Below are positions 12,924-54,440 of a stretch of 64,000 bases of DNA, piece by piece (position 1 is the stretch's first letter; every line of letters begins with the position of its first letter). This DNA comes from Halarcobacter sp. (lineage in GTDB: Bacteria; Campylobacterota; Campylobacteria; Campylobacterales; Arcobacteraceae). Location of the stretch: the NCBI GenBank assembly GCA_048571215.1, contig CP182352.1:576001-640000 (forward strand), in the 5' to 3' direction. The translations under genes were made by a program, and so were the position numbers. The notes under the pieces were generated by a model that was not told where the DNA came from, did no database searches, and worked only from the letters and a program-made list of their open reading frames with translations.

Positions 12924-12933
12924 GTTAAAGTAG

Positions 12934-28794: not shown

Positions 28795-29139
28795 TTCAAT
28801 TAAGAATTTATTATCAAGATCTAAAAATTAAATTTTTATATTAATTGAGGCTTTTTTTATCTATTAAAAATAAAATATCTTCTTAAAAAATATGATTTTA
28901 ATTATTTAGTAAAAATTTATAACCTTAAAGTTGTAAATGTAGAGATTTGTGAAAAGTTTTGTAAAGAAGAGATTAGTTTAATAAATTGGGCAGTTGAGAG
29001 AAGTGCATCTGTTTTTCCTTGGGATGGTTTATGCTTAGTTAAGGTATTAGTTGTACAAAGAATACTTATATACTATTATTTACATGGGTGTAAAAAAGAT
29101 ATTTCACAGGCAGAACTTAAATCTTATTCCGAAAAGTAA
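28778..29139 (+). pseudogene. Lasso leader peptidase B2 (transglutaminase-like) pseudogene
   Basis: Manual translation: MLKFLNSIKNLLSRSKN*IFILIEAFF / shift in T7 run (28852-58) / YLLKIK...INWAVERSASVFPWDGLCLVKVLVVQRIL / shift / TIIYMGVKK. The catalytic AHAW motif is eroded (ELKSYS). Confidence 0.78.
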
Positions 29140-29296
29140 TAGTTTAAAACTTTTTTATTTATATTATTTTATAAGGCTTTATGACCTAATAAAAGGACAC
29201 ACTTTGAGTATACTTGGTATGAATCTAAAAGATAATAAAAAAGAGTTTCAAAATAAAACATCTTATGTATATAACTATTTAAATAAAAGGCAATAA

Positions 29297-30202: not shown

Positions 30203-30257
30203 TTATTATATATAAGAAATTTTATGATATACTTTTAGCAAAAATAATGGAGTTTTT

Positions 30258-30377
30258 ATGAAAAATAAAAAAGTTAATATAAAAGAAATTTGGATTAAAC
30301 CAGAAGTTAAAGAGTTAGATGTTAATAAGACTGCAAATGCTACTTCTGTTAATTCAGATGGTTCACTTTTAAGTTAA
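30258..30377 (+). CDS. Lasso peptide precursor A1 (39 aa, missing from ORF track)
   Basis: GGAG RBS. MKNKKVNIKEIWIKPEVKELDVNKTA-NATSVNSDGSLLS*. WxxP...LDV..T leader, Asp at core position 8, C-terminal Ser. Confidence 0.85.
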   Translation: MKNKKVNIKEIWIKPEVKELDVNKTANATSVNSDGSLLS

Positions 30378-30620
30378 GTAAATTATGGCTATTTATTTCT
30401 TTAAACATTTTTAGTTTTAGAATATGATAGATTAAGATTTTTTTTGGTAGATTTTTTAATAAGATTTTATAATTGGACTTAATAAATTTACCGGCTCTTT
30501 ATGTACCCTTTATTATGTTATTATGATTCTAGTGTAGCATTTATAAAAGATGCTCAAAATCATAAACTTTGCAGAATAGAAACAATTTAAAATAAAAAAA
30601 TAAAGATTTAGGAAATTAAT

Positions 30621-31709
30621 TTGAATTGGATTAAAACTATTTTTATAAATATAAATATTTTAATAATATTTATATTTATATTAAATATGTCAAGCATAGG
30701 GATATATAAGATATATCATATTTTGAATGATGTAAAAAATAATGATAAAAAGTATGAACTACCTAGCTACGCAAATCAAGATTGGGCAAAAACTTATTTT
30801 GATGAATTTAATAATGTATCTTTTCAATATAAAGATTATTATGTTTGGAGAAGTTTGCCTTTTTCTGGTGAGACAATAAATATAGATAAAAATGGACATA
30901 GAAAAACATATCAACATCCAGATGAAAATAATTTATCAAAAATAGCTGTTTTTATAGGTGGTTCTACTACATGGGGATTTGGTGCTTATGATGAGGGGAC
31001 CATTCCTTCCTTTTTTTCAAAATATATGAAAGGAAAATATAAAGCTGTAAATTTAGGAGAAAATGGTTATTGTGCATTTCAAGAATATACATATTTGAGT
31101 TATCAATTGGCAAATGGATTAAAACCAGACTTGATAGTATCCTATGATGGTGTAAATCAACTTAAATCTCTACAAAATATAAATGAAGGATTTGGAAGTG
31201 CAAGAGAAAATCAAATTCAAGAAATGATGAAAGGAAAAGATACAAAAAAGGATTTAGAATTTAATATGATTATAAAACCTATAAATGATTTTATAGTTAA
31301 ATTAGTTGAGAAATACAATAATAAAAACAAACAGGAAGAGTTAGATTTATCAGAAAAAAACATTGAATCAGCAGCAAAAGAAGTAATTGAGAGTTGGATG
31401 TTGATAAATAATCTTGCAAAAATAAATAATTCAAAGTATATTATTATACTACAACCAAATCTATACATTGGAAATCCAAAAAAAGATCATCTTATATTAA
31501 GAGAAGAACGAGGAAAAGCATATAAGTTATTGTATAAGAAAATAAAAGATATGATTAAATTGGAAAAATATAAAGATATTTATAGTAAATTTTATGATTT
31601 TACAAATGCATATGATAATGAACAATATTTATACTGTGACGATTGTCATGTATCTCCAGTGGGAAATGAGATAATAGCTAAAAAAATTATTAATATTTTA
31701 AATAATTAG
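30621..31709 (+). CDS. Membrane-anchored SGNH/GDSL hydrolase-fold protein
   Basis: N-terminal TM; FIGGSTTWG block I; NLG; YDGVN; DDCH..P.GN block V. Confidence 0.85.
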   Translation: MNWIKTIFININILIIFIFILNMSSIGIYKIYHILNDVKNNDKKYELPSYANQDWAKTYFDEFNNVSFQYKDYYVWRSLPFSGETINIDKNGHRKTYQHPDENNLSKIAVFIGGSTTWGFGAYDEGTIPSFFSKYMKGKYKAVNLGENGYCAFQEYTYLSYQLANGLKPDLIVSYDGVNQLKSLQNINEGFGSARENQIQEMMKGKDTKKDLEFNMIIKPINDFIVKLVEKYNNKNKQEELDLSEKNIESAAKEVIESWMLINNLAKINNSKYIIILQPNLYIGNPKKDHLILREERGKAYKLLYKKIKDMIKLEKYKDIYSKFYDFTNAYDNEQYLYCDDCHVSPVGNEIIAKKIINILNN

Positions 31710-31765
31710 AATAATATTCATTTGTTTAATGACAGAATTGAACATTAATAAAATAAGAGTTTTAT

Positions 31766-31899
31766 ATGGAAAATAAGAAAATCGAAAAAGTAGAAGTAAA
31801 AAAGTCTTGGGTTAAATCAAAAGTTAAAGAGTTAGATGTTAATAAAACAGCAGCTAGTGGTGGTGCTGTGCGTGGGATGGTTCAGCTTACGCTAGTTAA
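31766..31899 (+). pseudogene. Lasso peptide precursor A2, frameshifted in the core
   Basis: Leader WVKSKVKELDVNKTA shares a 25-nt exact match with A1. Core ASGGA..., then DGSAYAS* in a shifted frame (TAA 31897-99). Confidence 0.78.
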
Positions 31900-32253
31900 A
31901 AGTAAGCCGTTAAGAAACTATGTTAATCGGGTGAGACAATACCTGAAAATGTAGAAATTAAAGGTAAGAGAATTTACCTAAATTGTATTAGTAGTGTAAA
32001 AATAACTGTTTAAATCCAATTTTCAACTTATCGAATAGGCTTGAAATTTGCTCTGTCTGGTAGATTTATTTGAAGGGTTTACAGATGGAAATTTTAAATA
32101 AAGAACTATGTAGATAAATAAAAAAGATAAAGAGTACTCTCCTATGATGCACCTTTTTTTCAAGAAAAGTAAACTAGTTTGTATGAAGTCCTTTTGTAAC
32201 TCCGTACTTACTAAAAGAGATGTTGTTTAGATAAAAGTCTACCAAATTCTTTT

Positions 32254-34107
32254 TTATTGGTCTTGAAAAAAAGGTGCATTATAATTTAAAAATTCCATGA
32301 TTCCAACACTTTTAAAAAGTAAATGGGTATTCATAGCAGATAATTCTTTTTTCTTTAAAGTATTTAAATCTGCTAACAGCCTTTTTTTGTCAAATAGTTC
32401 AATGTCTATTAAATCAGTTTTAAAATCATTTATTATACTCTCAATTTCAGGGATATCTTTCTGTATTCTATCTATGATATCTGCACTTTGTAAACCTTTG
32501 TTTTTTTGATGTAAAACTTTATCTGGTAATCTATCTTTCATCAAATGTTTGATTATATTTTTCTCTTTATTCTCTTTAGAAATATATAGTTCATTTGGAA
32601 GTTTTAACATATATTCTATTACTCTTTTATCTCCTGTAGGATCAGCTAAATTTATATTAAAATACTGTGATGCATTTGCACCAAATTCACATCTTTTATT
32701 AAAACCTAACATTAGAATTTTTTTCATCAACTCTTTTTCATCATCTTTTGTAAAATAAAAAGAAAAGTCTTCATTTCTTTTTGATTTTTTTATTAACTGT
32801 TTTATTTGTATATCTAAAGAAGGGTTTAAATAACTATAGTCACTCCACATAGTTTTTTTTAACATATTTGTAAAAGGTTTATAATATCTTGAATAAATAG
32901 GTCTTAATAGTTTATTTTTGATTAAAGATTTAAGCCCATAGATTTCATATAATTTATCTGAGTCTAAAAGATAATTTATACCTGTGTAAGATGTCGTTGC
33001 ATTACCTGTTTCTCCACTAAGTAAAACTTCATGACTATTTTTTGAAACCTGACTATAAATATCCATTAACCAGTATGCATTAATGGTTGCATGAATTGGT
33101 TCATTAAAAACTTCAAGTGATAAACGCAATCCCTCAAGTGGCGTTAATTGTGCTGAATTTAAAAAGTGTGCATCTATATTCCCACATTTTTCTATAACAG
33201 CTTTCATATTAGCACTTTCATCACCATTTCTATCTCCAATTAGATCTTGTCTTATATTATATTGTGGTACATGGGAATATGTATGTAAAGTTTGATTCTC
33301 TTTTTTTAATAATTCACTAGCAACAGTGGAAACACTAGTACTATCTAATCCTCCACTTAACATAGAAGCTATTGGCTTATCACTTTGAATTCTACACCTT
33401 ACTGCTTCTGTAAATATCTCATTTAGCTCTTCAATAGCTTGATTTAAAGTTATACTATAATCAACTTTTATTTTTTCAGGGAACCAATATCTCTCTTTTT
33501 TTATCTCTTTTTTATTTAACCAAGCTCTATGAGCTGGATTTAGTACTTTTAAATTTTTGTAAAAAGTTGAGTCATCTTCAGATAAATAGACTATAGCATC
33601 TCTTCCAATTGCCTTTTCAATATCAATTGTCAAATCTATAAAAGGTATTTTTTTTATTAGCCTAATACTTGTAGAAACAATAATATAATCTGAATCAACA
33701 TAATAGTAAACAGCAGTATATCCATGATGATCTTGTGCTATAAAATATTCCTCTTTTTCAAAGTCATATATTAGTAAAGACCAATCTCCTATTATCTTAT
33801 CTACACACTCTTGTCCATATTTTAAATAAAGTTCCAAAATAAGTTTAGTATTGTCAATATCTATGCAAGAATTATGATTTATGTATTTTTTTAATTCTTT
33901 TTTATTGTATATTCTTCCATTAAAAATTATAGATATCTTTTTTGATTGTGATTTATATGTTTGAATATTGTTTATATTTGAATTGGATAAAATTAAATGA
34001 TTTTTTTCAAATAGAGAATGATTATATGAAAATGTATGAGAAAAACCTTTTAGGTCATCTTTTATAAATTGTTTTTTTAAACTTAGTATTGATAGAAAAC
34101 TGTGCAT
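32254..34107 (-). CDS. Lasso cyclase (asparagine synthetase-like, C protein)
   Basis: 617 aa; GRIYN..EL, GDWS, MLSGGLDSTSV PP-loop, LLSGETGN..SY, D.RVIE...P, KGLQSAD. Lacks the N-terminal Cys2 of true AsnB. Confidence 0.88.
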   Translation of the reverse strand: MHSFLSILSLKKQFIKDDLKGFSHTFSYNHSLFEKNHLILSNSNINNIQTYKSQSKKISIIFNGRIYNKKELKKYINHNSCIDIDNTKLILELYLKYGQECVDKIIGDWSLLIYDFEKEEYFIAQDHHGYTAVYYYVDSDYIIVSTSIRLIKKIPFIDLTIDIEKAIGRDAIVYLSEDDSTFYKNLKVLNPAHRAWLNKKEIKKERYWFPEKIKVDYSITLNQAIEELNEIFTEAVRCRIQSDKPIASMLSGGLDSTSVSTVASELLKKENQTLHTYSHVPQYNIRQDLIGDRNGDESANMKAVIEKCGNIDAHFLNSAQLTPLEGLRLSLEVFNEPIHATINAYWLMDIYSQVSKNSHEVLLSGETGNATTSYTGINYLLDSDKLYEIYGLKSLIKNKLLRPIYSRYYKPFTNMLKKTMWSDYSYLNPSLDIQIKQLIKKSKRNEDFSFYFTKDDEKELMKKILMLGFNKRCEFGANASQYFNINLADPTGDKRVIEYMLKLPNELYISKENKEKNIIKHLMKDRLPDKVLHQKNKGLQSADIIDRIQKDIPEIESIINDFKTDLIDIELFDKKRLLADLNTLKKKELSAMNTHLLFKSVGIMEFLNYNAPFFQDQ

Positions 34108-38976: not shown

Positions 38977-40530
38977 TTGAAGTTTATTACTGAGAAAAAT
39001 TTATCAAAAATTATTATTTATATCTTTATTATCATTATGACAAGTATGATTATGATGATTTCTTATTTTTATGTGAAAAATACCTATGAAGAATTTGACA
39101 ATGAGATGGATAAATATGTACAAGAACATTATAGGAGTCAAAAGGTTGCTTTGAAAAAAGAGATTGATACTATTATCGATGTTATAAAATATAATGCAAC
39201 AAAAAATGATGAGAGTGAAAGTTTTTTAAAAGAAGATACTATTAGACTTCTAAATAATATCTCCTTTGATAGATATAGAAGTAATTATATTTTTGTATAT
39301 GATATAAAGAAGTTAGAGGGTGGAGATGATTTTGCTATTCTTTTAGTAAATCCAAATAGACTTGATTTGGTAGGAAAACTAATCTCTACAAACTATAAAG
39401 ATTCAAATGGAAAAAAATTTAGAGAAGAGTTTATGAAAGATATTAGAGAAAAGGGTGAGTCTTATACGGAGTACTCTTATAGAAAACTTGATACAGATAT
39501 TCCAAAACAAAAACTTTCATATTTTAAATATTTTCCAAGATGGAATTGGGTTATTGCAGTAGGGGTATATGTAGATGATATAGAAAAAGAGATTGAAAAA
39601 AACAGAGAAAATCTTCAAAGAAGAATTCAAAATCAAGTGATACAAAATATACTTTTATTTTTATTGTTTTTATCTTTTGCCATAGTGATTTCTATTTTGG
39701 TATCACAAAAAATCGATGATGTTCTAAAGTCTTATCAAAGAAGAGTTTATTCTAAATCAAAAGCATTAAAAGAGTTAAATGGAAGCTTAGAAAAAAAGGT
39801 AAAAGAGGAGATAGAAAAAAATAGAGAACATGAACAACTACTTGTTCAAAAATCTAAATTTATAGCATTAGGTGAGATGATTTCAAACATTGCTCACCAA
39901 TGGAGACAACCCTTATCGGAGTTATCTTCAATAATGATGTTTATAAAATTTAAATATGAAATGGGAAAACTAAATGACGAGATAATGGAGAAAAAAGCAA
40001 AAGAAGCTGAGTCCGTTTTAGATTTTATGTCCCATACCATTGATGATTTTAGAAACTTTTTTATACCAAAAAAAGAAAAAGAGAAGTTTACTTTAATCTC
40101 AGCTTTAGATTCAGTGATAACAATTGTTTCAAGCTCTTTGATAAATAATCAAATCAATCTTACAGTTTGTGTTGATGATAAAATTGAACTAAATACTTAT
40201 TTAAATGAGTTTCAACAAGTTATGTTAAATATAATCAAAAATGCAAAAGATGTTTTGATAGAAAAAAATATAAAAAATCCATGGATTAAAATATATACAG
40301 AGCTTCAAAAGGATTCTATTGTGCTTTTTGTAGAAGATAATGGTGGTGGAATAGTAGTTGAACCAAAGAGTAAAATATTTGAACCATATTTTACAACTAA
40401 AAAAGATAGTGATGGAACAGGAATAGGGCTTTATATGTCAAAAATCATTGTCGACAAAAATATGAATGGAAGATTAAAAGTTACTAATGCCCAAGAGGGT
40501 GCAAAATTTGAGATAATTTTGCCTAAATAG
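38977..40530 (+). CDS. Cache-domain sensor histidine kinase
   Basis: YIFVY..DSNGK..KLSY...WNWVIAVGVY single Cache domain; AHQWRQPL. Confidence 0.92.
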   Translation: MKFITEKNLSKIIIYIFIIIMTSMIMMISYFYVKNTYEEFDNEMDKYVQEHYRSQKVALKKEIDTIIDVIKYNATKNDESESFLKEDTIRLLNNISFDRYRSNYIFVYDIKKLEGGDDFAILLVNPNRLDLVGKLISTNYKDSNGKKFREEFMKDIREKGESYTEYSYRKLDTDIPKQKLSYFKYFPRWNWVIAVGVYVDDIEKEIEKNRENLQRRIQNQVIQNILLFLLFLSFAIVISILVSQKIDDVLKSYQRRVYSKSKALKELNGSLEKKVKEEIEKNREHEQLLVQKSKFIALGEMISNIAHQWRQPLSELSSIMMFIKFKYEMGKLNDEIMEKKAKEAESVLDFMSHTIDDFRNFFIPKKEKEKFTLISALDSVITIVSSSLINNQINLTVCVDDKIELNTYLNEFQQVMLNIIKNAKDVLIEKNIKNPWIKIYTELQKDSIVLFVEDNGGGIVVEPKSKIFEPYFTTKKDSDGTGIGLYMSKIIVDKNMNGRLKVTNAQEGAKFEIILPK

Positions 40531-40738
40531 CTACTTTTTTATCTTTTTTTTCTTTTTTTGCTGGTTGATATAACATATGATGCCATAAAGAGAAACCACA
40601 TAGAGCTACTCCTGCACCAATATGAACATTTTTTGCTAATTTGTTTTTCATAAACATTGATGTTACAACTGTAGCACCTAATGTTGCAGTCATTCCAATT
40701 TTTGCTATCTCTTTTTGTACTTCTAAATCAACATTCAT
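40523..40738 (-). CDS. Small two-TM His-containing membrane protein
   Basis: KIGMTATL...VHIGAGVALCGFSLWHH; start coupled (ATGA) to the upstream small ORF. Confidence 0.72.
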   Translation of the reverse strand: MNVDLEVQKEIAKIGMTATLGATVVTSMFMKNKLAKNVHIGAGVALCGFSLWHHMLYQPAKKEKKDKKVAI

Positions 40739-40848
40739 TGTTTCTCTTTCCTTTTTCTTCTTTTTTCCATTTTTCTTGCAGTTGTATTTAATGTTTTAAC
40801 TGTTAATGCAGTGGTTAAAACTGCTGCTAAAGGTAAAAGTAATGGCAT
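40735..40848 (-). CDS. 37-aa small protein (missing from ORF track)
   Basis: AAGGA RBS; MPLLLPLAAVLTTALTVKTLNTTARKMEKRRKRKEKQ*; its TGA overlaps the next ATG. Confidence 0.65.
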   Translation of the reverse strand: MPLLLPLAAVLTTALTVKTLNTTARKMEKRRKRKEKQ

Positions 40849-40861
40849 GTTAAATCCTTAT

Positions 40862-40876
40862 TGATAATTATTATTA
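40862..40876. promoter_or_regulatory. Fur box (7-1-7, one mismatch)
   Basis: TGATAATTATTATTA directly upstream of the RBS of the 37-aa gene. Confidence 0.7.
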
Positions 40877-40907
40877 AAATATTATCATTAGTTAGCTAAA
40901 ACTAAAC

Positions 40908-40922
40908 TGATAATTATTATCA
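40908..40922. promoter_or_regulatory. Fur box (perfect 7-1-7)
   Basis: TGATAAT-T-ATTATCA palindrome. Confidence 0.8.
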
Positions 40923-40932
40923 TATAATGCAA

Positions 40933-43041
40933 TTACCGTACCTTTACTCCTTGTATCGATGTTAACAATAAACCAATTGTTGTTCCATTATGTAAAAATG
41001 CAGTTGTTACTGGTGAAAATAAGCCAAATGTAGCACCTGCTAATATAGCAGAGTTTATTCCAACTGTTGCATTGAAATTGTTCTTGATTAGTTTCATAGT
41101 ATTATTTGCTAACTCTTTTGCATCTGCCACTGCATTTATATCATCTTTTAACAAACTAACATCTGCTGTTGCTTTTGCAATATCTGCACCTTTACTCATA
41201 GAGATACCAACATGTGCAGAGATTAAAGCGGGTGCATCGTTTATTCCATCTCCAACAAAAGCTACTTTTTTACCACTGTTCATTAAATCTTTTACAATTT
41301 GCGCTTTATCTTGAGGTAATAATTGGGCTTTCACTTCATCAATACCTAACTCTTGGGCAATCATTTTTGCTTTACTTTCTATATCACCTGTTAACATGAT
41401 GATATTTTTAACCCCAAGAGATTTTAATCTTTTTATTACATCTTTAGCATTAGGTCTTACTCTATCTGATAACTCAATTGTTCCTAGTAGTTTTCCATCA
41501 TAACCTATGTATAAAAGGGTTTTACCTTGTTCAAGAGATTCTTTAATTCTTTTTTTATGAGAAGAAAAATCTATTTTTTCATCATCTTCTAGAAAATGTC
41601 TACTTCCTATGATTACAGATTTCCCTCCCATTTGTGTTTTAACTCCATGGGCAACAATAAATTCAACCTCTTCATGGTGCATATGTACAAATCCATTATC
41701 TTTTGCTGCTTTTACTACAGCTTCTGCAACTGGATGAAAATAGTGTTCTTCTGTTGAAGCAGTTAAATTTAGGATCTCATCTTTTGTCCAATTTTTATCA
41801 TAAGATTGAACTTCAATAACTTCTAATTCACCAGAAGTTAGAGTTCCTGTTTTGTCAAATACAAAGGTATCAGCACTATTTAATGCTTCAATAGATTTTG
41901 CACCTTTTATCATTATCCCTTCATGTCCAGCTTTTGAAATAGTTGATTTAAATGCCACAGGAGTTGCAAGTTTTAATGCACATGAGTAGTCAGCTTGTAA
42001 AACAGAAGCTACCCGTTCCATATTCTTTGAAAGTACATAAGATATATCTGCGAGACCAAGTGTAACTGGTACAAGTTTATCTGCCAATCTTGTTGCTTTT
42101 AATTGAACTGATGATTTCTCATTTAAAGAGTTTTCAATATAGTGTTTTATTCTTTGTGTAGCAGTATTTGCACCTACATGTTCAGCCCAAATCCTAAGTC
42201 TTCCATCTTCTATAATAGTACCAGAGATTACTCTATCACCCCTTACTTTTAGAACTGGTTCAGCTTCACCTGTCATGGAAACTTGATTTACACTTGCACT
42301 ACCTTCTAAAATATGTCCATCAACTGGTATAGTATTACCAATACCAACCACAACAATATCTCCAATTTTTATATTTGCACTTTTTACTAAAGTTTCAGTT
42401 ACTTTCCCATCAACTTTAGTTTCTAACCAAGCTTCTTCAACATTTGGTTTAGATAACTCTTTTAATAAATCATCACTTTTATGTACAGTTGTTTCTTCTA
42501 TATATTCACCAAGCTCTAACATTACATTTGTAGAGTTAGCTGCAAAATAATCTTTTCTTAAAATAGAGATACCAACTGCAGCACTCTCTAAAACTTTTGA
42601 AGTTAGACCTTCATTATATAACTCTTTAGAACCTTCAATTACTAAAGGTATTGCCACACTAGATGTAACAGCTGCTTTTAGAAAATCATTTTTAATAAAT
42701 CTTTCTGAAACAAGTGCTGAACTGGCTCTTACTACACCCATAATACTAGGTTCTTCATCATTTACACAAGATACACAAACGGCAGCTTCTTTACAATTAC
42801 TTAAATAATCATCTCTAGTAGCATTAGATAACTTTTCTTCTATTAAATCTATTGTAGAAAAATCTTCAAGAATAAAAACTATACTATATGCTTTTTTATT
42901 TATTCTTACACTTTGAACACCATCTATTTGTTCAAAGTATATTTTTAAAATATTTGTATCAATAGATTTATCTTTTAATAAAGAATATTTATACCTAACT
43001 CTATTTTTTGTTTTGTGAACTTGTTTATAAGAATTACTCAT
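40933..43041 (-). CDS. fezB: P1B-6-type heavy-metal ATPase (FezB-like)
   Basis: N-terminal H...RVR motif, TGE, DYSCAL, DKTGTLT, HP, GDGINDAP, HNGTT. Confidence 0.8.
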   Translation of the reverse strand: MSNSYKQVHKTKNRVRYKYSLLKDKSIDTNILKIYFEQIDGVQSVRINKKAYSIVFILEDFSTIDLIEEKLSNATRDDYLSNCKEAAVCVSCVNDEEPSIMGVVRASSALVSERFIKNDFLKAAVTSSVAIPLVIEGSKELYNEGLTSKVLESAAVGISILRKDYFAANSTNVMLELGEYIEETTVHKSDDLLKELSKPNVEEAWLETKVDGKVTETLVKSANIKIGDIVVVGIGNTIPVDGHILEGSASVNQVSMTGEAEPVLKVRGDRVISGTIIEDGRLRIWAEHVGANTATQRIKHYIENSLNEKSSVQLKATRLADKLVPVTLGLADISYVLSKNMERVASVLQADYSCALKLATPVAFKSTISKAGHEGIMIKGAKSIEALNSADTFVFDKTGTLTSGELEVIEVQSYDKNWTKDEILNLTASTEEHYFHPVAEAVVKAAKDNGFVHMHHEEVEFIVAHGVKTQMGGKSVIIGSRHFLEDDEKIDFSSHKKRIKESLEQGKTLLYIGYDGKLLGTIELSDRVRPNAKDVIKRLKSLGVKNIIMLTGDIESKAKMIAQELGIDEVKAQLLPQDKAQIVKDLMNSGKKVAFVGDGINDAPALISAHVGISMSKGADIAKATADVSLLKDDINAVADAKELANNTMKLIKNNFNATVGINSAILAGATFGLFSPVTTAFLHNGTTIGLLLTSIQGVKVR

Positions 43042-43043
43042 GA

Positions 43044-43427
43044 TTATTGGTTATCTTGTGTTTCCATTTGTGCTTTTGCATCTTCATATCTCTCTTTCAA
43101 CTCTTCCATTCCCGCCTGAAAAAGTTCATTACCCTTTGAAAATGCCTTCATTATTGTTTGTTGAGCGTTTTTATTTGTAAGTAAATATGTTGCTGCTGCA
43201 CCAATTAGAGCACCTTTTATAAAATCTGCATTATTAAAAGTACTTTGATTGTTTTGTACAGGTTGATTATTAATCCCTTGGTTTATATATGGATTTTGTT
43301 GCATATTCATATTAGCAGCTGCATTTACTCTTGTACTTTCAATATTTGTATCATATGCAAATTGATTTTGTTGTACGCTATTTTGTGCATTTAAGCCATT
43401 AGGGCCCATATTTTTATTATTCATCAA
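43044..43427 (-). CDS. YtxH/FezA-like GxxxG small membrane protein with N/Q-rich N-terminus
   Basis: FIKGALIGAAATYLL followed by an amphipathic helix (ELKERYEDAKA). Confidence 0.72.
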   Translation of the reverse strand: MMNNKNMGPNGLNAQNSVQQNQFAYDTNIESTRVNAAANMNMQQNPYINQGINNQPVQNNQSTFNNADFIKGALIGAAATYLLTNKNAQQTIMKAFSKGNELFQAGMEELKERYEDAKAQMETQDNQ

Positions 43428-43794
43428 CTTTCTCCTCCTTGCCTTTGGTCTCTTTATTACAACAAGATGTTAAAGAATACTTTTCATCTAGTTTATCATC
43501 AAGTATCTCGATTGCATAAATACCAGCCATACCAATTGAAATAGTTGTCATGGCTTTAAGAAAACCACCTTTTTGTGTTAAGTAATTAGCAGTTTGGACA
43601 GCAGCACCAGTTGCAATGGCACCTTGAGAACTTCTTTTTACTGTTTCTTTTATAGCTAGTGTAGTACTAATCTCTTTATTTTTAACTTTTCTATAGTTTA
43701 CAGTACTAGATGCAATAGCTGAAGCTACTGCACCTGTTATAATACTTCTTAGTACTGGGTTGTCATTATTTGTAGTTGATATTGTATTTATCAT
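43417..43794 (-). CDS. Small Gly/Ala-rich membrane protein of the fez-like cluster
   Basis: GAVASAIA, GAIATGAA, IGMAGIY hydrophobic segments; co-operonic. Confidence 0.7.
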   Translation of the reverse strand: MINTISTTNNDNPVLRSIITGAVASAIASSTVNYRKVKNKEISTTLAIKETVKRSSQGAIATGAAVQTANYLTQKGGFLKAMTTISIGMAGIYAIEILDDKLDEKYSLTSCCNKETKGKEEKVDE

Positions 43795-44034
43795 TTATTT
43801 CCCTTTATCCTCAATTACTTCTTTTAAAGATTCTTCCTCTTTTTTCTTTTTAATACATTGTGCAGTTGCATTTATAGTATCTTTTACATCATCGACTTTT
43901 TCTTTCCCTTTTGATGCAATATCTTTTGACTTGTTAAAAAGTGAGTCAACTTTTTGTTTAATCTTATCAGACTTGTTGTATGCAAATACTGCACCAGCTC
44001 CTACAGCTAATCCTGCTATAAATGGTAAGGCCAT
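43795..44034 (-). CDS. Small GxxxG membrane protein (YtxH-like)
   Basis: MALPFIAGLAVGAGAV plus a charged helix; GAGGAG RBS. Confidence 0.72.
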   Translation of the reverse strand: MALPFIAGLAVGAGAVFAYNKSDKIKQKVDSLFNKSKDIASKGKEKVDDVKDTINATAQCIKKKKEEESLKEVIEDKGK

Positions 44035-44037
44035 AAT

Positions 44038-44709
44038 CTACTCCTCTTCTTTATTTATGTAGTTATTTAAAAGTGCTATTGCAGCAGCTCCAAGTGCCGC
44101 ACCACCAACCATTGAAATATTTAGTTTTGAAAATAGTTCAGTTAATTTTGACTGATCTACATTGCCACTTAACATATCATCTAAAATCATTTGATATTCA
44201 CCCATTTTTTCCATAATTTGATCTTGGTTAAAACCCTGGGTTGTATTTGCTACATTGTAATGATCTATTACACAATTTCTGAAAGCTGGAAGATGATTAT
44301 TATAAGAAGCAGCTTGCAATCTATAAAAAACATCTTTTATATCAGGTTCTTGAATATATGTTAATAGGTGATCATACATTGCAATATTTTTAATTTCACT
44401 TGCAACTCCTAATTCACAACATTCTATAAAGGTATCTGGAACCTGCAAGTTTGTTGACCAATTATTGAAAGGTATCTCAATCCCATATTTTTGAAATAAA
44501 GGAACAAGTAGGGCATAATGTCTTGCTTCTGATTCTTTGATATGTACAAATGGTTGTACAAAACCAAATTTTTCAATTATTTTTACATATGCCTCGTATG
44601 CTTTCATTTCATCATACATAGCTATTCTAAGAACTTGTGATAAAACAGCTTGTAGATCGTTTTCATCTACTTTTTGTGATAGTAGAATTGATTCATCATT
44701 ATTTATCAC
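44038..44709 (-). CDS. Ferritin-like domain protein with C-terminal GxxxG helix
   Basis: DE..A..Y, ESEARH, E..N..MY, ASYNNHL carboxylate/His motifs; VGGAALGAAA tail. Confidence 0.78.
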   Translation of the reverse strand: MINNDESILLSQKVDENDLQAVLSQVLRIAMYDEMKAYEAYVKIIEKFGFVQPFVHIKESEARHYALLVPLFQKYGIEIPFNNWSTNLQVPDTFIECCELGVASEIKNIAMYDHLLTYIQEPDIKDVFYRLQAASYNNHLPAFRNCVIDHYNVANTTQGFNQDQIMEKMGEYQMILDDMLSGNVDQSKLTELFSKLNISMVGGAALGAAAIALLNNYINKEEE

Positions 44710-45024
44710 CTATATAATCTCCTTTGACAAGTTATTTATAAGTAAGCTTATCTCTTCAATATTTTGCCCTTTTATTAAATCTTCCCATAAAGATGGTGTA
44801 AATATTTTAGAATCATAAAGGATGGTTACAGAAGCAATTATTTTATTTATCTTAATACTTTTTATTCCATTAATTCGTGAAGGTAAAGATTCAATATCAT
44901 CAATTGATACATTGTCACTCTCTTTTTGAATTTTTGGATTTACTCTTACTCTTATTCTTCCAGGGCTATGTGCTATTATTGTAAAATAACTTGCAATTTT
45001 TATTATCTGTTCTTCTGTAATCAA
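44710..45024 (-). CDS. HMA2-like domain protein (FezC-like)
   Basis: HSPGRIRVRV...GIKSIKIN....SVTILYD. Confidence 0.78.
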   Translation of the reverse strand: MITEEQIIKIASYFTIIAHSPGRIRVRVNPKIQKESDNVSIDDIESLPSRINGIKSIKINKIIASVTILYDSKIFTPSLWEDLIKGQNIEEISLLINNLSKEII

Positions 45025-45081
45025 AAATATCCTTTAATGTAATTTTTTCTATTTATAACTTTATGCAAACTTATTTTAGAC

Positions 45082-45096
45082 TCATAGTCATTATCA
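45082..45096 (-). promoter_or_regulatory. Fur-box-like site upstream of the fez-like operon
   Basis: Minus strand TGATAATGACTATGA (two mismatches to 7-1-7), overlapping the Fur gene stop codon. Confidence 0.5.
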
Positions 45097-45549
45097 GTTT
45101 TTTTGACACTCTTCACATAAACCATAAATAGACATAACATGATTTTTTAAAACAAAGCCATTTTTTTCGGCAATTTTTATCTGTTTTAGTTCAATAATAT
45201 CATCAGTAAATTCAATGATTTTATGACAAGAGGTACAAATAAGATGATCATGGTGGTGATCAAGATTTAGCTCAAACCTTCTAGTGCCATCACCAACATC
45301 TAAAGCCTCTACAATATTCATCTCTTCAAAGAAATTTATGCTTCTATATACAGTTGCAATTCCAATATCTAAGTTGAATTCTTTGTGAACCTCAGATGCT
45401 ATCTCTTCAGCACTTAAATGTGTTTGACTAAAAAAAAGGATTTTAAGAATGTAATCTTTTTGAATAGAGTTTTTAAAACCAAGTTTTGAAATATGGGATT
45501 TAAAGTTTTTAAGGAATAGGTCATATCTTTTTTCTTGATTAGTTGACAT
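45094..45549 (-). CDS. Fur-family transcriptional regulator
   Basis: HLSAEE, GIATVYR, HHHDHLICTSC, GLCEEC. Confidence 0.93.
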   Translation of the reverse strand: MSTNQEKRYDLFLKNFKSHISKLGFKNSIQKDYILKILFFSQTHLSAEEIASEVHKEFNLDIGIATVYRSINFFEEMNIVEALDVGDGTRRFELNLDHHHDHLICTSCHKIIEFTDDIIELKQIKIAEKNGFVLKNHVMSIYGLCEECQKN

Positions 45550-45749: not shown

Positions 45750-45764
45750 TGATAATTATTATTG
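45750..45764. promoter_or_regulatory. Fur box
   Basis: TGATAATTATTATTG in the intergenic region between the Fur gene and the divergent ORF at 45832. Confidence 0.62.
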
Positions 45765-45831: not shown

Positions 45832-46209
45832 ATGTTATTAGCAATTGGAGAAACAACTAGTAAAATTGTATTTAGTACTTTATTAACAAAAGCAATAAAT
45901 AATTTGCTTACATCAAAAAATAAAGATAAATTAGAAAAAAAGAATTATTTACTTAGTTATAAAACAAAGTTATTAATTAAGTTATATGAAAAAATATCTT
46001 TATTGGATGATAACTTTTTATCATCTGATTTAGATGTAATTAAATCTATCATAAATAAAATATCTATAATTATAGAAGATAAAGATTTTAATGAAAAGTT
46101 AGATAATTATCTTTTTATTTTAGAAGAATCAGATAAAAATAAGTATGGTATAGATATGCAATTAATAAATAATGAAATGAAACAAGTTATAAAAAAGAAT
46201 ATTAAATAA
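45832..46209 (+). CDS. Hypothetical protein
   Basis: 125-aa ORF with AAGG RBS; no recognised motif. Confidence 0.55.
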   Translation: MLLAIGETTSKIVFSTLLTKAINNLLTSKNKDKLEKKNYLLSYKTKLLIKLYEKISLLDDNFLSSDLDVIKSIINKISIIIEDKDFNEKLDNYLFILEESDKNKYGIDMQLINNEMKQVIKKNIK

Positions 46210-46223
46210 ACCTAATATTCTTT

Positions 46224-46775
46224 TTATAAAATAGTATGTTCAATTAGTATTTTAAGACCAATACCTATAAGTACAATACCACCAATCTTTTCAGCTTTAT
46301 CTTCTAAAAAAGATCCACCTTTTGTCCCTAAAAAAACTCCTAAAAAGCTGAATATAAAGGTGATTACTCCAATTAAAGTCATAGAGATAAATGGGTTTAA
46401 ATCCATTAATGTAAGAGTAAATCCAGCAGCCATAGCATCTATACTTGTTGCAATAGCTAAAACCAAAAGTATTTTATTTGTAACTTGTGATATCTCATCT
46501 TCTGTATTTTCTTGAAAACTTTCATAAAACATCTTAGCACCAATTAAAGCTAGTAAAATAAAGGCAATCCAATGATCTATTGATTGGATAAAACTTCCCA
46601 CTCCAACACTTGCAAGGTATCCAAAAAATGGCATTAATGCTTGAAATACACCAAAAAATAGTGCAACTTTAAAAGCTAAATAGATATCAAATTTTTTTGT
46701 TTTTACACCTATTCCTATTGAAACAGCAAATGCATCCATACTAAGTGCAAGTGCTAAAAAAATAACTTCTATCAA
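46224..46775 (-). CDS. mntP: Manganese efflux pump MntP
   Basis: ALSMDAFAVS, FQALMP, ATSIDAMAAG, GG.VLIGIG.KI. Confidence 0.93.
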   Translation of the reverse strand: MIEVIFLALALSMDAFAVSIGIGVKTKKFDIYLAFKVALFFGVFQALMPFFGYLASVGVGSFIQSIDHWIAFILLALIGAKMFYESFQENTEDEISQVTNKILLVLAIATSIDAMAAGFTLTLMDLNPFISMTLIGVITFIFSFLGVFLGTKGGSFLEDKAEKIGGIVLIGIGLKILIEHTIL

Positions 46776-49926: not shown

Positions 49927-50178
49927 ATGGGTGCAAGCACTTTACAAACCAAATTGGATAAGTATGTACATATAACAAATCAAACCCAAAAAGGTTTAAT
50001 TGAGTTTGATTTTTCAGTTGGCAATCCAACATTGTATGTAGAACTAGCCTTACCAGTAAAACAGTTTGAGGAGTTTTGTAAGAAAAATCAAGTGAAATTT
50101 CTCACAAAACAACAGCTAATTGATGTAGAAAACGACAAGTATAAATGGAAGTTTGGCGTAGTTGGAACATCAAAATAG
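49927..50178 (+). CDS. dmpK: Phenol hydroxylase assembly subunit (P0)
   Basis: KYV......GLIEFDFSVG.P.L.VEL.LP..QF..FC..NQV. Confidence 0.9.
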   Translation: MGASTLQTKLDKYVHITNQTQKGLIEFDFSVGNPTLYVELALPVKQFEEFCKKNQVKFLTKQQLIDVENDKYKWKFGVVGTSK

Positions 50179-50198
50179 ATTTAAACAGGAGAAGAAGA

Positions 50199-51194
50199 AT
50201 GACTTTAGATATAAAAAGCGTTGATATAAAACCTAAAAGATTGACTTTTGGTCATGTTGCTAGAAGAATTGGAGAAGATAAAGCTGCAACAAGATACGAA
50301 GAGGCAACTTATGATTTACAATCAGTTACAAACTTTCATTATAGACCTACATATAATCCAAAGTATGAATTATATGATGAAAGAAAAACTGCAATTAAAA
50401 TGAGTGATTGGTATAAGTTTTTAGACCCAAGACAATACTACTACTCAAATTATGTGATGACTAGGGCAAAACAACAAGAAGTAGCTGAGCAAAATTTTGT
50501 TTTTATTGAAAAAAGAGATCTTCTTGCTGTTATGCCTCAAGATGTAAAAGAGCAAATATTAACTTGTGTTTTACCTTTACGTCATTATGAGTGGGGAGCA
50601 AATATGAATAATCTTCAGCTTGTATCAGAATCATATGGTGCAGCATATGCTAGTGCAGCAATGTTTCATGCAGAAGATAGACTAGGAAATGCTCAATATA
50701 TAACTAGAATCGGATTATTAATTGGTGAAAATGAAACAGAGTTTTTAGATAAGTCAAAAGAGATTTGGCTAAATGATGCATCTTGGCAACCACTTAGAAA
50801 AGCTATGGAAGATAGTTTTGTGTTAGAAGATTGGTTTGAGTTACATATGGCTCAAAATGTGATTATGGATGGTTTCTTACACCCATTATTTTTTAATGTA
50901 TTTGAACAAGAGTTAAATGCAAAAGGTGGTTCTGCACAAGGAATGATGACTGAGTTTATTACAACTTGGTTTGAGGAATCAAGTAAATGGATAGATAAAA
51001 CTGTAAGTGTAGCTAGTAGTGAATCTTCTGAAAACTGTGAGATTTTAACTAGTTGGGCAGCAAGATATATTGATATCATGGAAGAAGCAACTCTTTCTTT
51101 AGCAAAAAATTTAGTATCAGACCCAGAAGCTGTTGTAAATGAAATAAAAGAAAATCTAATTGACCGTTTAAATAAAAACGGTTTAAATCTATAG
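50199..51194 (+). CDS. dmpL: Phenol hydroxylase beta subunit (P1)
   Basis: RYEEATYD.Q...NFHYRP, DWY...DPRQYYY, PLRH.EWGANMNN. Start at 50199 follows an AGGAG RBS. Confidence 0.93.
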   Translation: MTLDIKSVDIKPKRLTFGHVARRIGEDKAATRYEEATYDLQSVTNFHYRPTYNPKYELYDERKTAIKMSDWYKFLDPRQYYYSNYVMTRAKQQEVAEQNFVFIEKRDLLAVMPQDVKEQILTCVLPLRHYEWGANMNNLQLVSESYGAAYASAAMFHAEDRLGNAQYITRIGLLIGENETEFLDKSKEIWLNDASWQPLRKAMEDSFVLEDWFELHMAQNVIMDGFLHPLFFNVFEQELNAKGGSAQGMMTEFITTWFEESSKWIDKTVSVASSESSENCEILTSWAARYIDIMEEATLSLAKNLVSDPEAVVNEIKENLIDRLNKNGLNL

Positions 51195-51202
51195 GAGATG
51201 TT

Positions 51203-51478
51203 ATGGCTGATAATAATGTAATGTTAATTCTTCAAAGTGTTGAAGAAGCAAGACCAATGGTAGAGGCGATTTTAAAAGATAATACAGCAGCTACAGTTCA
51301 AAATGAACCTGCAATGATAAAAATAACTTGCCCAAATAAGTTAGTAGTTAAAGCTGATACTATGGAAGAGCTTATTGGTAGAGAGTGGGATCCACAAGAG
51401 TTACAGTTAGTGTTAATCTCTCTTGCGGGTAATGTTGATGAAGATTATGATCATTTTACAATCTATTGGGATAACTAG
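51203..51478 (+). CDS. dmpM: Phenol hydroxylase regulatory subunit (P2, MmoB/DmpM)
   Basis: EEAR..VEAI..DN, PAMIKI, LISLAGNVDED. Confidence 0.93.
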   Translation: MADNNVMLILQSVEEARPMVEAILKDNTAATVQNEPAMIKITCPNKLVVKADTMEELIGREWDPQELQLVLISLAGNVDEDYDHFTIYWDN

Positions 51479-51487
51479 GAGAAACTT

Positions 51488-53008
51488 ATGACAATGAATA
51501 CAAAAAACAGAAAAAAACGTTTAAATATGAAAGAGAAGTATCACCATATGACAAGACTTGGATGGGATACAACATATCAAGATATGGATAAGGTTTTCCC
51601 TTATGATAAATTTGAGGGTATAAAGATACATGATTGGGAAGCTTGGGAAGATCCATTTAGAATGACAATGGATGCTTACTGGAAATATCAAGGGGAAAAA
51701 GATAAAAAGCTTTATGCGATTATTGATGCTTTTGCACAAAATAATGGACAAAAAAACATTACAGATGCAAGATATGTATCAGCATTAAAACTGTTTTTAA
51801 CAGGTGTTTCTCCTTTGGAATATCAAGCACATAGAGGTTTTGCTCATGTGGCAAGAAACTTTAGAGGTGATGGTCCAAGAGTTGCTTGTCAAATGCAAGC
51901 AATAGATGAGTTAAGACATGTACAAACACAAATTCATACTTTAAGTCATTATAATAAACACTTTAATGGATTCTCTGAATGGTCTCATTGGCATGATAGA
52001 GTATGGTACCTTTCAGTTCCAAAATCGTTTTTTGATGATGCAAGAACAGCTGGACCTTTTGAGTTTATGATTGCAATTGGTTTTTCATTTGAATATGTTC
52101 TAACAAATCTATTATTTGTACCATTTATGAGTGGTGCTGCATATAATGGAGATATGGCGACAGTAACATTTGGATTCTCAGCACAAAGTGATGAGGCTAG
52201 ACATATGACATTAGGTTTACAAGCTATTAAGTTCATGTTAGAACAAGACCCAGATAATGTTCCTATTGTTCAAAAATGGATTGATAAATGGACATGGAGA
52301 GGATATAAGGTTTTAGGACTTGTATCTATGATGATGGATTATATGTTACCTGAATCTCCTCAATCTTGGAAAGAAGCTTGGGAATTATATTTTGAAGAAA
52401 ATACAGTTTCTTTATTTAAAGATTTAGAAAGATATGGAATAACAATTCCAAAATGTGCTGGAACAGTTGCAGCAGAAAAAGAGCATCTATCTCATCAAAT
52501 TTGGATGACATTTTATACTCATGGGGCAGCTGCACCTTTTCATACTTGGATTCCAGATGAGAAAAAGATGGATTGGTTGAGTGAAAAATATCCAAACACT
52601 TTTGATAAATATTATAGACCAGTGTATGAACATTGGGATAAATTAGAAAAACAGGGAAAAAGATATTACTCTGAGATGCTTCCTCAACTTTGTCAAACTT
52701 GTCAAATTCCAATGTTATATACAGAAGTTGAAAAAGGTGAACCAACTCAAATCGCCCATAGACATACGATGTATAATGGGGAAAGATTCCATTTCTGTTC
52801 AGATCATTGTAAAGAGATTTTTGAAGATGAACCAGAAAAATTTACTCACTCTTGGATGCCTGTTCAACAAATTTTCCAAGGAAATTGTGGTGGAGCAACA
52901 CTTCCAGAAGTATTAGATTGGTATAAAGTAAAATTTGGTGTAGATAACTGTGACTACAAAGGCTCAGAAGATGAAGCTACTTGGAAAAAGTGGCATGGAC
53001 AAGCATAA
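51488..53008 (+). CDS. dmpN: Phenol hydroxylase alpha subunit (P3, diiron, YHS)
   Basis: WEDPFR, DELRH and DEARH diiron motifs, CQTCQIP, FCSDHC. Confidence 0.96.
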   Translation: MTMNTKNRKKRLNMKEKYHHMTRLGWDTTYQDMDKVFPYDKFEGIKIHDWEAWEDPFRMTMDAYWKYQGEKDKKLYAIIDAFAQNNGQKNITDARYVSALKLFLTGVSPLEYQAHRGFAHVARNFRGDGPRVACQMQAIDELRHVQTQIHTLSHYNKHFNGFSEWSHWHDRVWYLSVPKSFFDDARTAGPFEFMIAIGFSFEYVLTNLLFVPFMSGAAYNGDMATVTFGFSAQSDEARHMTLGLQAIKFMLEQDPDNVPIVQKWIDKWTWRGYKVLGLVSMMMDYMLPESPQSWKEAWELYFEENTVSLFKDLERYGITIPKCAGTVAAEKEHLSHQIWMTFYTHGAAAPFHTWIPDEKKMDWLSEKYPNTFDKYYRPVYEHWDKLEKQGKRYYSEMLPQLCQTCQIPMLYTEVEKGEPTQIAHRHTMYNGERFHFCSDHCKEIFEDEPEKFTHSWMPVQQIFQGNCGGATLPEVLDWYKVKFGVDNCDYKGSEDEATWKKWHGQA

Positions 53009-53017
53009 GGAGATAAA

Positions 53018-53380
53018 ATGGCTGTTAAATCAATAGGTAAATATGAAGCAAATATGATGGATAGAGTTGAGAACTTTCATGGTAATCAACTGGTTTTTAT
53101 TGGTTGGGATAAACATAGAATGATAAATTCAGCTATGGGTTTTCCTTTACCACCACAAATGCCATTTTCAGCACTTTTAAGTGATGTGATGCCAATGTGT
53201 TATAAAGACCATCCAGATTTTGAAAAAGTTGTTTGGGATGATTCTGTTATTTGGAATCTAAATGGTGAATCTTTTTCTCCTGATGTAAATAAATCATTGG
53301 AAGAAAATGGAATCGACCACAAATCTATTTTAAGATTTGAAACACCAAATCTTACAGGATTAAATGGCGTAGGGATGTAA
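53018..53380 (+). CDS. dmpO: Phenol hydroxylase gamma subunit (P4)
   Basis: DRVENFHG..L.IGWD.H, HPDF, SL.ENGIDHKS.LRF.TP.L.G. Confidence 0.93.
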   Translation: MAVKSIGKYEANMMDRVENFHGNQLVFIGWDKHRMINSAMGFPLPPQMPFSALLSDVMPMCYKDHPDFEKVVWDDSVIWNLNGESFSPDVNKSLEENGIDHKSILRFETPNLTGLNGVGM

Positions 53381-53381
53381 G

Positions 53382-54440
53382 ATGAGTTATACAGTTGAGA
53401 TTGAACCAACAGGTGATGTAATAGAGGTTCAAGAGGGACAAACAATTCTTGATGCGGCATTAAGACAAGGGGTATATCTACCCCATGCCTGCAATCATGG
53501 CTTGTGTGGAACTTGTAAAATCGAACTTCTTGAAGGGGAAGTTGACCATGGAGATGCTTCACCATTTGCTTTGATGGATATGGAAAAAGATGAAGGAAAA
53601 TGTTTGGCATGTACTTCAAAACCTAAAGAGGATTGTGCAGTTGAAGCTGATATTGATGAGGATGCAGATGCAAGAAGTATCCCTGTAGAAGATTTTGAAG
53701 CAACAGTTGTAGAAATAAAAGATTTAACCCCAAGAATTAAGGGGATAGTTTTAGAACTTGATAAAAATATTGATTTTCAAGCTGGACAATATGTACAATA
53801 TTATGTTCCAGATTTTGAAGAACCTAGAGCTTTTTCAATTGCAAGTTCTCCTAAAAGTGGAAAAACTATAGAGTTAAATATATCTTTGATACCTGATGGT
53901 GAAGTTACACCTTGGATACATAATAATACAAAAGTTGGAGACAAAACAAAAGTCTCTGGTCCTTTTGGAAGATTTTTTGTAAAAGAATCAGCTCAAAAAC
54001 CTATGGTATTTTTTGCTGGAGGTTCTGGTTTATCAAGTCCAAAGTCTATGATTGAAGATCTACTTGAAAGAGGATGTACCTTGCCTATAACACTTTTTCA
54101 CGGAGCTAGAAATCAAGATGAGCTTTATTATGCAGATTTATTTAGAAACTTAGAAAAAGAGTATGAAAATTTTAGATATATACCTGCATTATCGGGAGAT
54201 AATTTAGTTGAATGGGACGGTGAAACTGGTTATTTAAATGATGTGGCAGTTAAAACCTATGATAATAACTTCTCAGGTCATAAAGCATATTTATGTGGAC
54301 CACCTGCAATGTTAGATGTATGTATTACTGCACTTATGAGGGGAAGGTTATATGAAAGGGATATTCATATAGAAAAATTCTTTTCTAAAGCAGATTTAGA
54401 TGCAAAAAACCAAAAAAGTCCACTTTTTAAATCTTTATAA
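53382..54440 (+). CDS. dmpP: Phenol hydroxylase reductase (P5; 2Fe-2S/FAD/NAD)
   Basis: CNHGLCGTC...LAC, RAFSIAS, AGGSGLS, YLCGPP. Confidence 0.95.
   Translation: MSYTVEIEPTGDVIEVQEGQTILDAALRQGVYLPHACNHGLCGTCKIELLEGEVDHGDASPFALMDMEKDEGKCLACTSKPKEDCAVEADIDEDADARSIPVEDFEATVVEIKDLTPRIKGIVLELDKNIDFQAGQYVQYYVPDFEEPRAFSIASSPKSGKTIELNISLIPDGEVTPWIHNNTKVGDKTKVSGPFGRFFVKESAQKPMVFFAGGSGLSSPKSMIEDLLERGCTLPITLFHGARNQDELYYADLFRNLEKEYENFRYIPALSGDNLVEWDGETGYLNDVAVKTYDNNFSGHKAYLCGPPAMLDVCITALMRGRLYERDIHIEKFFSKADLDAKNQKSPLFKSL

Follow-up and report, generated by a model that had tools for sequence, protein, structure and literature searches.

The stretch considered here is a 64-kb window (the whole of the DNA analysed) on the complete 3.61-Mb chromosome of Halarcobacter sp., with 28.5% G+C. 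Scans of the window for open reading frames (ORFs) and protein families revealed an eight-gene cluster on the minus strand (40523-45024), with a fur gene upstream of it (45094-45549). The cluster is of the ferrosome (fez) type, which has already been predicted for Campylobacterota. This assignment had been made in a preliminary description of the DNA, and it is backed by motifs, phylogeny, gene content and conserved gene order. The features of the locus are as follows.

40523..40738, minus strand: two-helix membrane protein of 71 amino acids, DUF4405-like, with two conserved His, resembling the membrane part of FezC.
40735..40848, minus strand: microprotein of 37 amino acids with a hydrophobic N-terminal helix and a basic tail, recognized by ORF conservation.
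40862..40876: Fur-box-like site with one mismatch, immediately before the 37-amino-acid gene, its position kept in relatives.
40908..40922: perfect 7-1-7 Fur-box-like site from the motif scan, between fezB and the 37-amino-acid gene.
40933..43041, minus strand: FezB-type P1B-6 ATPase of 702 amino acids, recognized by its motifs, by TIGR01525 over cut-off and by a tree.
43044..43427, minus strand: GxxxG (GALIG) membrane protein of 127 amino acids with an Asn/Gln-rich N-terminus and a helical tail (YtxH-like).
43417..43794, minus strand: three-helix membrane protein of 125 amino acids, by profile comparisons a homolog of magnetosome MamC.
43795..44034, minus strand: membrane protein of 79 amino acids with an N-terminal GxxxG (GLAVG) and a Lys-rich tail.
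44038..44709, minus strand: DUF2202 ferritin-like four-helix bundle of 223 amino acids (PF09968 over cut-off) with a C-terminal GxxxG helix (GAALG).
44710..45024, minus strand: soluble HMA_2 protein of 104 amino acids with RxRxR (PF19991 over the Pfam cut-off).
45082..45096: Fur-box-like site with two mismatches from the motif scan, about 60-75 nt before the HMA_2 gene.
45094..45549, minus strand: accessory Fur paralog of 151 amino acids (PF01475 over cut-off).
45750..45764: Fur-box-like site with two mismatches from the motif scan, between fur and the divergent 125-amino-acid gene.
45832..46209, plus strand: protein of 125 amino acids, divergent from fur and conserved with it.
46224-46775: mntP, adjoining the locus.

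The P1B ATPase carries the DYSCA (residues 351-355), DKTGT (396) and HNGTT (684-688) motifs, so the DYSCA and HNxxT motifs of the preliminary description were both located. The Arg-rich N-terminus claimed with them is present in a minimal form, namely RVR at residues 14-16 (R14 and R16) inside a weak HMA_2 match (E-value (E) 5e-4, below cut-off). The protein has no CxxC or His-rich N-terminal metal-binding domain, and the CxxC at 89-92 belongs to a linker outside the HMA domain. An Asn lies upstream of HNGTT at a spacing of 20 residues, the same in 81 of 83 motif-bearing relatives, against a spacing of 18 quoted in the literature. According to the accessible text of the ferrosome preprint, FezB is defined by D[Y/F]SCA, HNxxT and an R-rich N-terminus (Grant and Komeili, bioRxiv 10.1101/2020.01.10.902569). 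Both P1B-6 motifs occurred in all 60 full-length homologs from the fetched loci. A tree of 139 sequences was built from the window protein, the CPC ATPase of the same genome (root), three second ATPases taken from related loci and 134 of the 150 best representatives, 16 having been dropped for length. The window ATPase fell in a clade of 98 (support 0.992) containing 82 of the 83 motif-bearing sequences, and thus groups with P1B-6 and not outside it, in a tree whose members do not include the tested FezB proteins. Its nearest named relatives are Halarcobacter and Arcobacter records (86% identity). Ten near FezB representatives were checked by name and none is an experimentally tested protein, and no FezB structure was found among 24 PDB matches. 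With the SCA motif, HNxxT, the R-rich start and this placement, the pump is classed as a predicted P1B-6 (FezB) ATPase.

Pumps of this kind are known from another setting as well. In the CtpC/PacL effluxosome of mycobacteria, a P1B-6-like pump likewise works with small scaffolds in efflux platforms, according to the accessible text of that study (PMC13460109). Accordingly built, the cluster would be a metal-efflux platform in the cytoplasmic membrane, in which the small proteins scaffold the pump and Fe(II) or another metal is exported to the periplasm, with no vesicle. However, as far as the same text goes, CtpC carries CPC and not SCA and exports zinc at the plasma membrane (PMC13460109), whereas the cluster pump has DYSCA as in FezB. 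The accessory set is that of the tested fez operons, and Fur-box-like sites common with uptake genes suit a preparation for storage better than efflux. We consider the efflux platform unlikely.

The ATPase was found in 90 of 154 genomes of the family and in 124 of 301 genomes of the phylum, spread over seven families; these counts include related strains, so that kin are not independent. The HMA_2, ferritin-like and MamC-like genes occur together in 57 of 66 related loci, many of the others being cut by contig ends, the same trio plus the 71-amino-acid gene in 49, and plus both small genes in 47. The gene order was kept in all eight loci sampled from other families, one of them without an intact fezB frame called, and related clusters adjoin feoAB, flavodoxin and TonB genes (names assigned by eye). 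The cluster type is not new for Campylobacterota. SMUL_2748 is one of nine FezB homologs in Extended Data Fig. 5 of the preprint (10.1101/2020.01.10.902569), which thus already uses a Sulfurospirillum protein as representative; in the text consulted, SMUL_ tags denote Sulfurospirillum multivorans (PMC7755780). The Sulfurospirillum loci fetched for comparison have the gene order of the window and a FezB 61-63% identical. In literature searches that did not reach the Nature 2022 version or the supplementary tables of the preprint, we came across no experiments on the cluster in Campylobacterota. The earlier statement that no ferrosome has been demonstrated in the phylum stands to that extent, beside the published prediction.

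The tested fez systems, compared by the text of the papers, are the six-gene operons of Shewanella putrefaciens and Rhodopseudomonas palustris, fezABC of Desulfovibrio magneticus and fezAB of Clostridioides difficile. The window cluster has in common with them a P1B-6 ATPase with an R-rich N-terminus, GxxxG proteins and an HMA-type protein, and its order GxxxG protein, two-helix protein, GxxxG protein, fezB is that of Vibrio-type loci. In contrast to the tested operons, it has DUF2202, the 37-amino-acid microprotein, a stand-alone DUF4405-like gene, an internal pair of Fur boxes and a second Fur, and has no fused FezC. Some relatives have a second CPC-type ATPase or a 71-amino-acid protein fused to a SpoIIAA-like domain; the window copy has neither. 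A second ATPase with SCPC, HIxHT and an R-rich start precedes the cluster in seven related loci (L017, L044, L045, L048, L049, L063 and L065) and is probably FezH of the preprint. Two of these, L048 and L049, are identical in layout though filed under Advenella and Sulfurimonas, which suggests a misbinned contig. In addition, two 133-kb Arcobacter plasmids from chicken meat (L069 = CP129951.1; CP134847.1) carry the ATPase and the MamC-like gene; the stretch of L069 holds the whole fez cluster, a DUF2325 gene and integrases, and no Fur gene.

Three small GxxxG or Gly/Ala-rich membrane proteins had been reported in the preliminary description. The strict motif is present in the 79-amino-acid (GLAVG) and 127-amino-acid (GALIG) proteins, while the 125-amino-acid protein is Gly/Ala-rich without it. 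The 79-amino-acid protein, in which G8 and G12 are invariant in 16 sequences, appears FezA/FezE-like by motif. A relation of this protein to Mms6 was considered and rejected, since the match reached E 0.053 only, with a profile score of 3.4% against MamC, and was treated as Gly-rich noise. In two relatives, an extra 30-amino-acid GxxxG microprotein lies before the gene (L113:2909-3001 and L114:2641-2733). Homologs of the 127-amino-acid protein directly precede fezB in Vibrio, Azospirillum and Cereibacter loci, which suggests that it occupies the FezG position. The HMA2-like protein of the preliminary description (44710-45024) was recovered over the Pfam cut-off with its RxRxR and may be FezD-like.

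The ferritin-like protein with a GxxxG tail was likewise borne out, as a DUF2202 protein over cut-off ending in GAALG. Its model is a four-helix bundle (predicted local distance difference test, pLDDT, 81.8) with a low-confidence C-terminal helix, and the best fold match was MJ0754 (E 1.2e-5), followed by Dps-like and bacterioferritin chains. E34, E61-x2-H64, E105 and H139 are conserved. As we read the alignment, the second ExxH (Ser135-Tyr-Asn-Asn-His139) lacks its Glu, which in a di-iron centre would be the second of the bridging residues, and ferroxidase activity is therefore uncertain. The gene is conserved in 58 of 66 loci, the fold is that of ferritin, and three tested operons lack DUF2202 in the preprint's description. 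These points would suit a ferritin-centred system, in which the pump and the membrane proteins feed a membrane-tethered DUF2202 ferroxidase or cofactor assembly without any mineral vesicle. Against it stand the missing Glu and a canonical ferritin encoded elsewhere in the genome, and we hold it to be improbable.

The 125-amino-acid membrane protein links the cluster to another iron organelle. Of 18 members of its family, 17 match the MamC model NF038051 (best E 3.3e-8), and PF26373, which bears the name MamC in the Atlas, lies on all 120 homologs among the matches listed. The window copy alone reaches 18.5 bits against NF038051, far below the NCBIfam equivalog cut-off of 100 bits, with an E of 0.009 per genome; the MamC model matched 4 of 14 control genomes at E 0.1 and none at 0.01 or 0.001. 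Because the single copy matches so weakly, the case rests on the whole family. Among 401 genomes from a different phylum, 15 proteins scored above the MamC cut-off. Selected neighbours were scanned at ten of these mamC loci: five have MamD, MamX or MamZ over cut-off, one has a MamE-like match below cut-off and four have no mam match. A profile made from the window protein and 63 homologs from related loci only, with no MamC included, recovered all 15 MamC proteins (E 2e-11 to 1e-3), and 14 of them scored 13.8-35.0 bits forward versus -5.5 to 1.6 reversed. Profile-profile comparison of the family with MamC gave a probability of 96.6% (E 5.8e-10); two further membrane-protein families from the cluster reached 3.4% and 0.3%. 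The protein aligns with MamC (Mms13; NF038051, PF26373) over 93 columns, and these comparisons firmly support homology across both membrane core and loop. When PDB sequences were searched for MamC, neither the family profile nor the loop by itself retrieved anything relevant, and a fold search with a model of the protein returned generic helical bundles only (best Z 8.2). MamC-like genes also occupy the second place ahead of fezB in loci from Vibrio, Azospirillum and Cereibacter and in two others, three of the five matching NF038051 at better than E 1e-5 and two unmatched. The gene order in the legend of Fig. 3 of the preprint suggests that the MamC homolog occupies the FezF position.

Whether homology extends to function was considered from the loop. 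The iron-binding residues of MamC are Glu66, Asp70 and a Gly two positions on, in AMB-1 numbering and according to the accessible text (PMC6584501). The family and MamC have the loop N-x-K-x-EI-x3-E-x3-D-T-x-K in common. The columns that would correspond to Glu66 and Asp70, on an inferred mapping to AMB-1 numbers, are acidic in 13 and 14 of 14 MamC and in 43 and 46 of 63 family members, both being acidic in 34 of 63. The Gly and the Glu following the loop Asp are not retained, the window copy reads Leu46/Glu50/Val52 with Leu in place of the first acid, and the loop charge is +5 in the window copy and +3.9 in the family versus -0.4 in MamC. For these reasons, iron-binding chemistry in common with MamC is doubtful.

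Around true mamC, DUF4405-like genes occur at 3 of 15 loci and DUF2202 genes at 4 of 15, the DUF2202 proteins there being only distantly related to that of the cluster. Together with the MamC homolog, these genes might suggest that the cluster is a magnetosome remnant or a magnetite maker. However, FezB is at none of the 15 mamC loci, MamC-like genes are also part of Vibrio-type fez operons, and no magnetosome genes were found in the window's genome: MamO gave no match over cut-off, and MamI and MamD gave no match in searches without a positive control. Such an origin or product is very improbable. The DUF4405-like and DUF2202 genes beside true mamC, seen in the magnetotactic-type loci L091, L093, L094, L099 and L100, gave no name in NCBIfam. 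The accessible text of the preprint, in which the word MamC is absent, treats ferrosome and magnetosome as genetically distinct (10.1101/2020.01.10.902569). Literature searches joining MamC with ferrosome, fez or DUF terms, with the Nature 2022 text and supplements outside their reach, found no paper making the link.

Of the two genes after fezB, the preliminary description mentions neither the 37-amino-acid ORF nor the DUF4405-like character of the 71-amino-acid protein. In the family of the 71-amino-acid protein, whose gene is present in 55 of 66 loci, 15 of 17 members match PF14358 (best E 1.2e-4), and the window copy has no match. The family profile matches the C-terminal half of an HMA_2 protein in an Azospirillum fez cluster (E 8.6e-4), and the accessible preprint text relates the DUF4405 class to the membrane part of FezC (10.1101/2020.01.10.902569). 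The 71-amino-acid and HMA_2 proteins together may equal a split FezC. Five relatives (L060, L063, L065, L113 and L114) have the DUF4405-like protein with a fused domain at its C-terminus, which in L060 is SpoIIAA-like. The 37-amino-acid microprotein, without a Pfam or NCBIfam match, is conserved in sequence and present in 53 of 66 loci. Among the 154 genomes of the family, 81 encode it; each of these is one of the 90 fezB genomes, and the remaining 64 have no copy. In six fetched cases where the gene is unlinked from the cluster, box-like sites are nearby and it stands beside a Fur gene (four) or the 71-amino-acid gene (two). Because these unlinked copies keep such sites and neighbours, the gene is read as a unit that can move but remains associated with fezB.

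Regulation was approached with a 7-1-7 motif, which we take to be the Fur-box consensus. The genome contains one perfect site, 12 that are near-perfect and 139 with two mismatches; 31 of these fall outside long ORFs. Four sites lie within the fez locus, and that at 40908 is the sole perfect match in 3.61 Mb. Other boxes precede feoA, an iron ABC (ATP-binding cassette) binding protein, an imelysin-like gene, a flavodoxin operon and a DUF2325 gene (named by eye), and many of the 31 non-ORF sites have no iron link. A 19-bp box scan was discarded as unspecific in AT-rich DNA. In related loci, sites that differ from the motif at no more than two positions lie within 100 nt of the 37-amino-acid gene in 47 of 53 loci, 29 of them perfect (0.9% in shuffles), before the HMA_2 gene in 33 of 57 (0.8%) and before the upstream Fur in 29 of 40 copies (L040 was dropped as its slice ran off the locus), against a base-shuffle background of 0.8-3.5% across these tests. 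None was found before 14 downstream core Fur genes, nor in control regions before the fezB, ferritin-like and MamC-like genes, which are coding DNA and hence a weak control. The Fur gene and Fur boxes of the preliminary description thus hold, the sites recurring far above shuffles.

The same description had given the cluster its own Fur regulator. The genome holds four Fur-family genes. The adjacent one shares 40.6% identity with the core Fur, which is encoded at another site, resembles Fur more than PerR or Zur (best NCBIfam models Fur, below cut-off) and, in the alignment, retains the His/Glu metal ligands. In a tree, 39 upstream copies form a clade with it (0.989), and the core Fur falls separately, together with 14 downstream copies (0.942). 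In 27 of 66 loci the paralog is the gene immediately before the cluster. At least two Fur matches, a proxy for the paralog, occur in 75 of 90 fezB genomes versus 15 of 64 others, so the paralog usually travels with the cluster and yet is missing from 15 fezB genomes. By these patterns it is an accessory paralog and not strictly dedicated to the cluster. Since the recognition helices of the adjacent and core Fur are nearly identical, either could bind the candidate boxes. Elsewhere, the paralog stands without fez in L115 and L116, and beside the 37-amino-acid gene, far from fezB, in L107, L110 and L111. Seven loci (L018, L021, L022, L027, L031, L040 and L041) unite both Fur paralogs, feoAB, the fez cluster, flavodoxin and DUF2325 in one iron island, which is split in the window's genome (351-355 kb and 616-622 kb).

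The stretch was found in one of three RNA runs examined (run X1, a metatranscriptome, condition not known). There, a single 4,948-nt contig covers 40344-45291 at a depth of 205 with 39 differences (0.8%), and the flanks of the cluster yielded short fragments only (depth 2.5-10.4). Transcription is the simplest reading of this contig; contigs show no strand, level or single transcript. The 5' half of fur has no deep RNA cover and was not counted as evidence. A second stretch with four boxes had a depth of only 4-15, and therefore simple joint derepression by iron starvation does not fit this one run, in which contig depth is a poor measure. A deep cluster beside a shallow box-bearing iron-uptake stretch is what an excess-metal response might give, a point in favour of the efflux platform. 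As far as the accessible paper and its supplement extend, an Arcobacter butzleri infection transcriptome (PMC9927503) contains no matching ATPase name.

The accessory classes all match those listed in the preprint (R-rich, GxxxG, DUF2202 with a GxxxG tail and DUF4405). The cluster is read as one that probably builds ferrosomes, lipid-bounded iron-phosphate stores, likely under Fur control. In the tested systems, as described in the accessible texts, three species lose their granules when fez is deleted and the operon from Shewanella is sufficient in E. coli (10.1101/2020.01.10.902569), foci appear in E. coli with FezA and FezB alone (10.1101/2025.09.22.677801), and iron in the C. difficile ferrosome is held as ferrous phosphate (10.64898/2026.06.16.732667). 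By analogy, the GxxxG proteins (79 and 127 amino acids and the tail of the ferritin-like protein) would cluster with FezB and bud a vesicle, and FezB, assisted by the HMA_2 protein, would move Fe(II) into the lumen, where it would precipitate with phosphate. The MamC homolog would have a structural role in the membrane, nucleation at this protein being no more than a possibility. The DUF2202 protein, tethered to the membrane, may bind metal at the vesicle surface, and the 37- and 71-amino-acid proteins may form a separately regulated accessory unit. Several points weigh against the ferrosome reading. The ATPase tree holds no experimentally characterized FezB, P1B-6-like pumps with small scaffolds also serve plasma-membrane efflux, and the MamC-like loop is basic with its first acid replaced. 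In addition, the genome has a canonical ferritin, the second four-box stretch was shallow in the RNA run, a promoter and terminator scan of the cluster was at chance level, and the searchable literature yielded no granule, localization or transport data for this cluster type.

Some neighbouring genes and other parts of the genome were also recorded. The preliminary description had placed mntP next door. The adjacency is correct but incidental: mntP is adjacent in 1 of 66 related loci and was rejected as a component. The divergent 125-amino-acid protein had a family match in neither Pfam nor Atlas searches, and its gene is present in 29 of 66 related loci. By eye, a six-gene run at 49927-54440 (plus strand; 83, 349, 91, 506, 120 and 352 amino acids) resembles a multicomponent phenol hydroxylase and adjoins a PAS histidine kinase and a response regulator. 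Also by eye, a 3,299-amino-acid ORF with strong AT skew at 1-7172 (plus strand), which begins before the window, is probably a large adhesin, and genes resembling a type I secretion set follow it (10983-19533). A PqqD-like small ORF, further ORFs and a convergent asparagine-synthetase-like gene at 28522-34107 suggest a lasso-peptide-type locus, and repetitive ORFs at about 3255900-3258000 of the genome resemble a CRISPR array beside a cas2-like gene, both likewise by eye.

A wider idea can be put forward tentatively, as a possibility with less than even chances. Ferrosomes and magnetosomes may share an ancestral biomineralization module, in which MamC, the membrane protein that templates magnetite, and the standard fez component at the FezF position would be one family and the DUF4405-like and DUF2202 genes near true mamC would belong to the same module. 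Two in five sampled Campylobacterota would then use this set of proteins to make iron organelles, with a Fur-controlled microprotein of 37 amino acids tuning the process. Weighing against the importance of the MamC link, these proteins already carry the label MamC in Pfam, and the link may be mentioned in the Nature version or its supplements. The cluster type is common in Campylobacterota, including culturable and air-tolerant Arcobacter, whereas the tested ferrosomes all come from anaerobic growth. The MamC homology would offer a testable handle on what shapes and seeds the ferrosome mineral, and on the origin of magnetosome accessory proteins.

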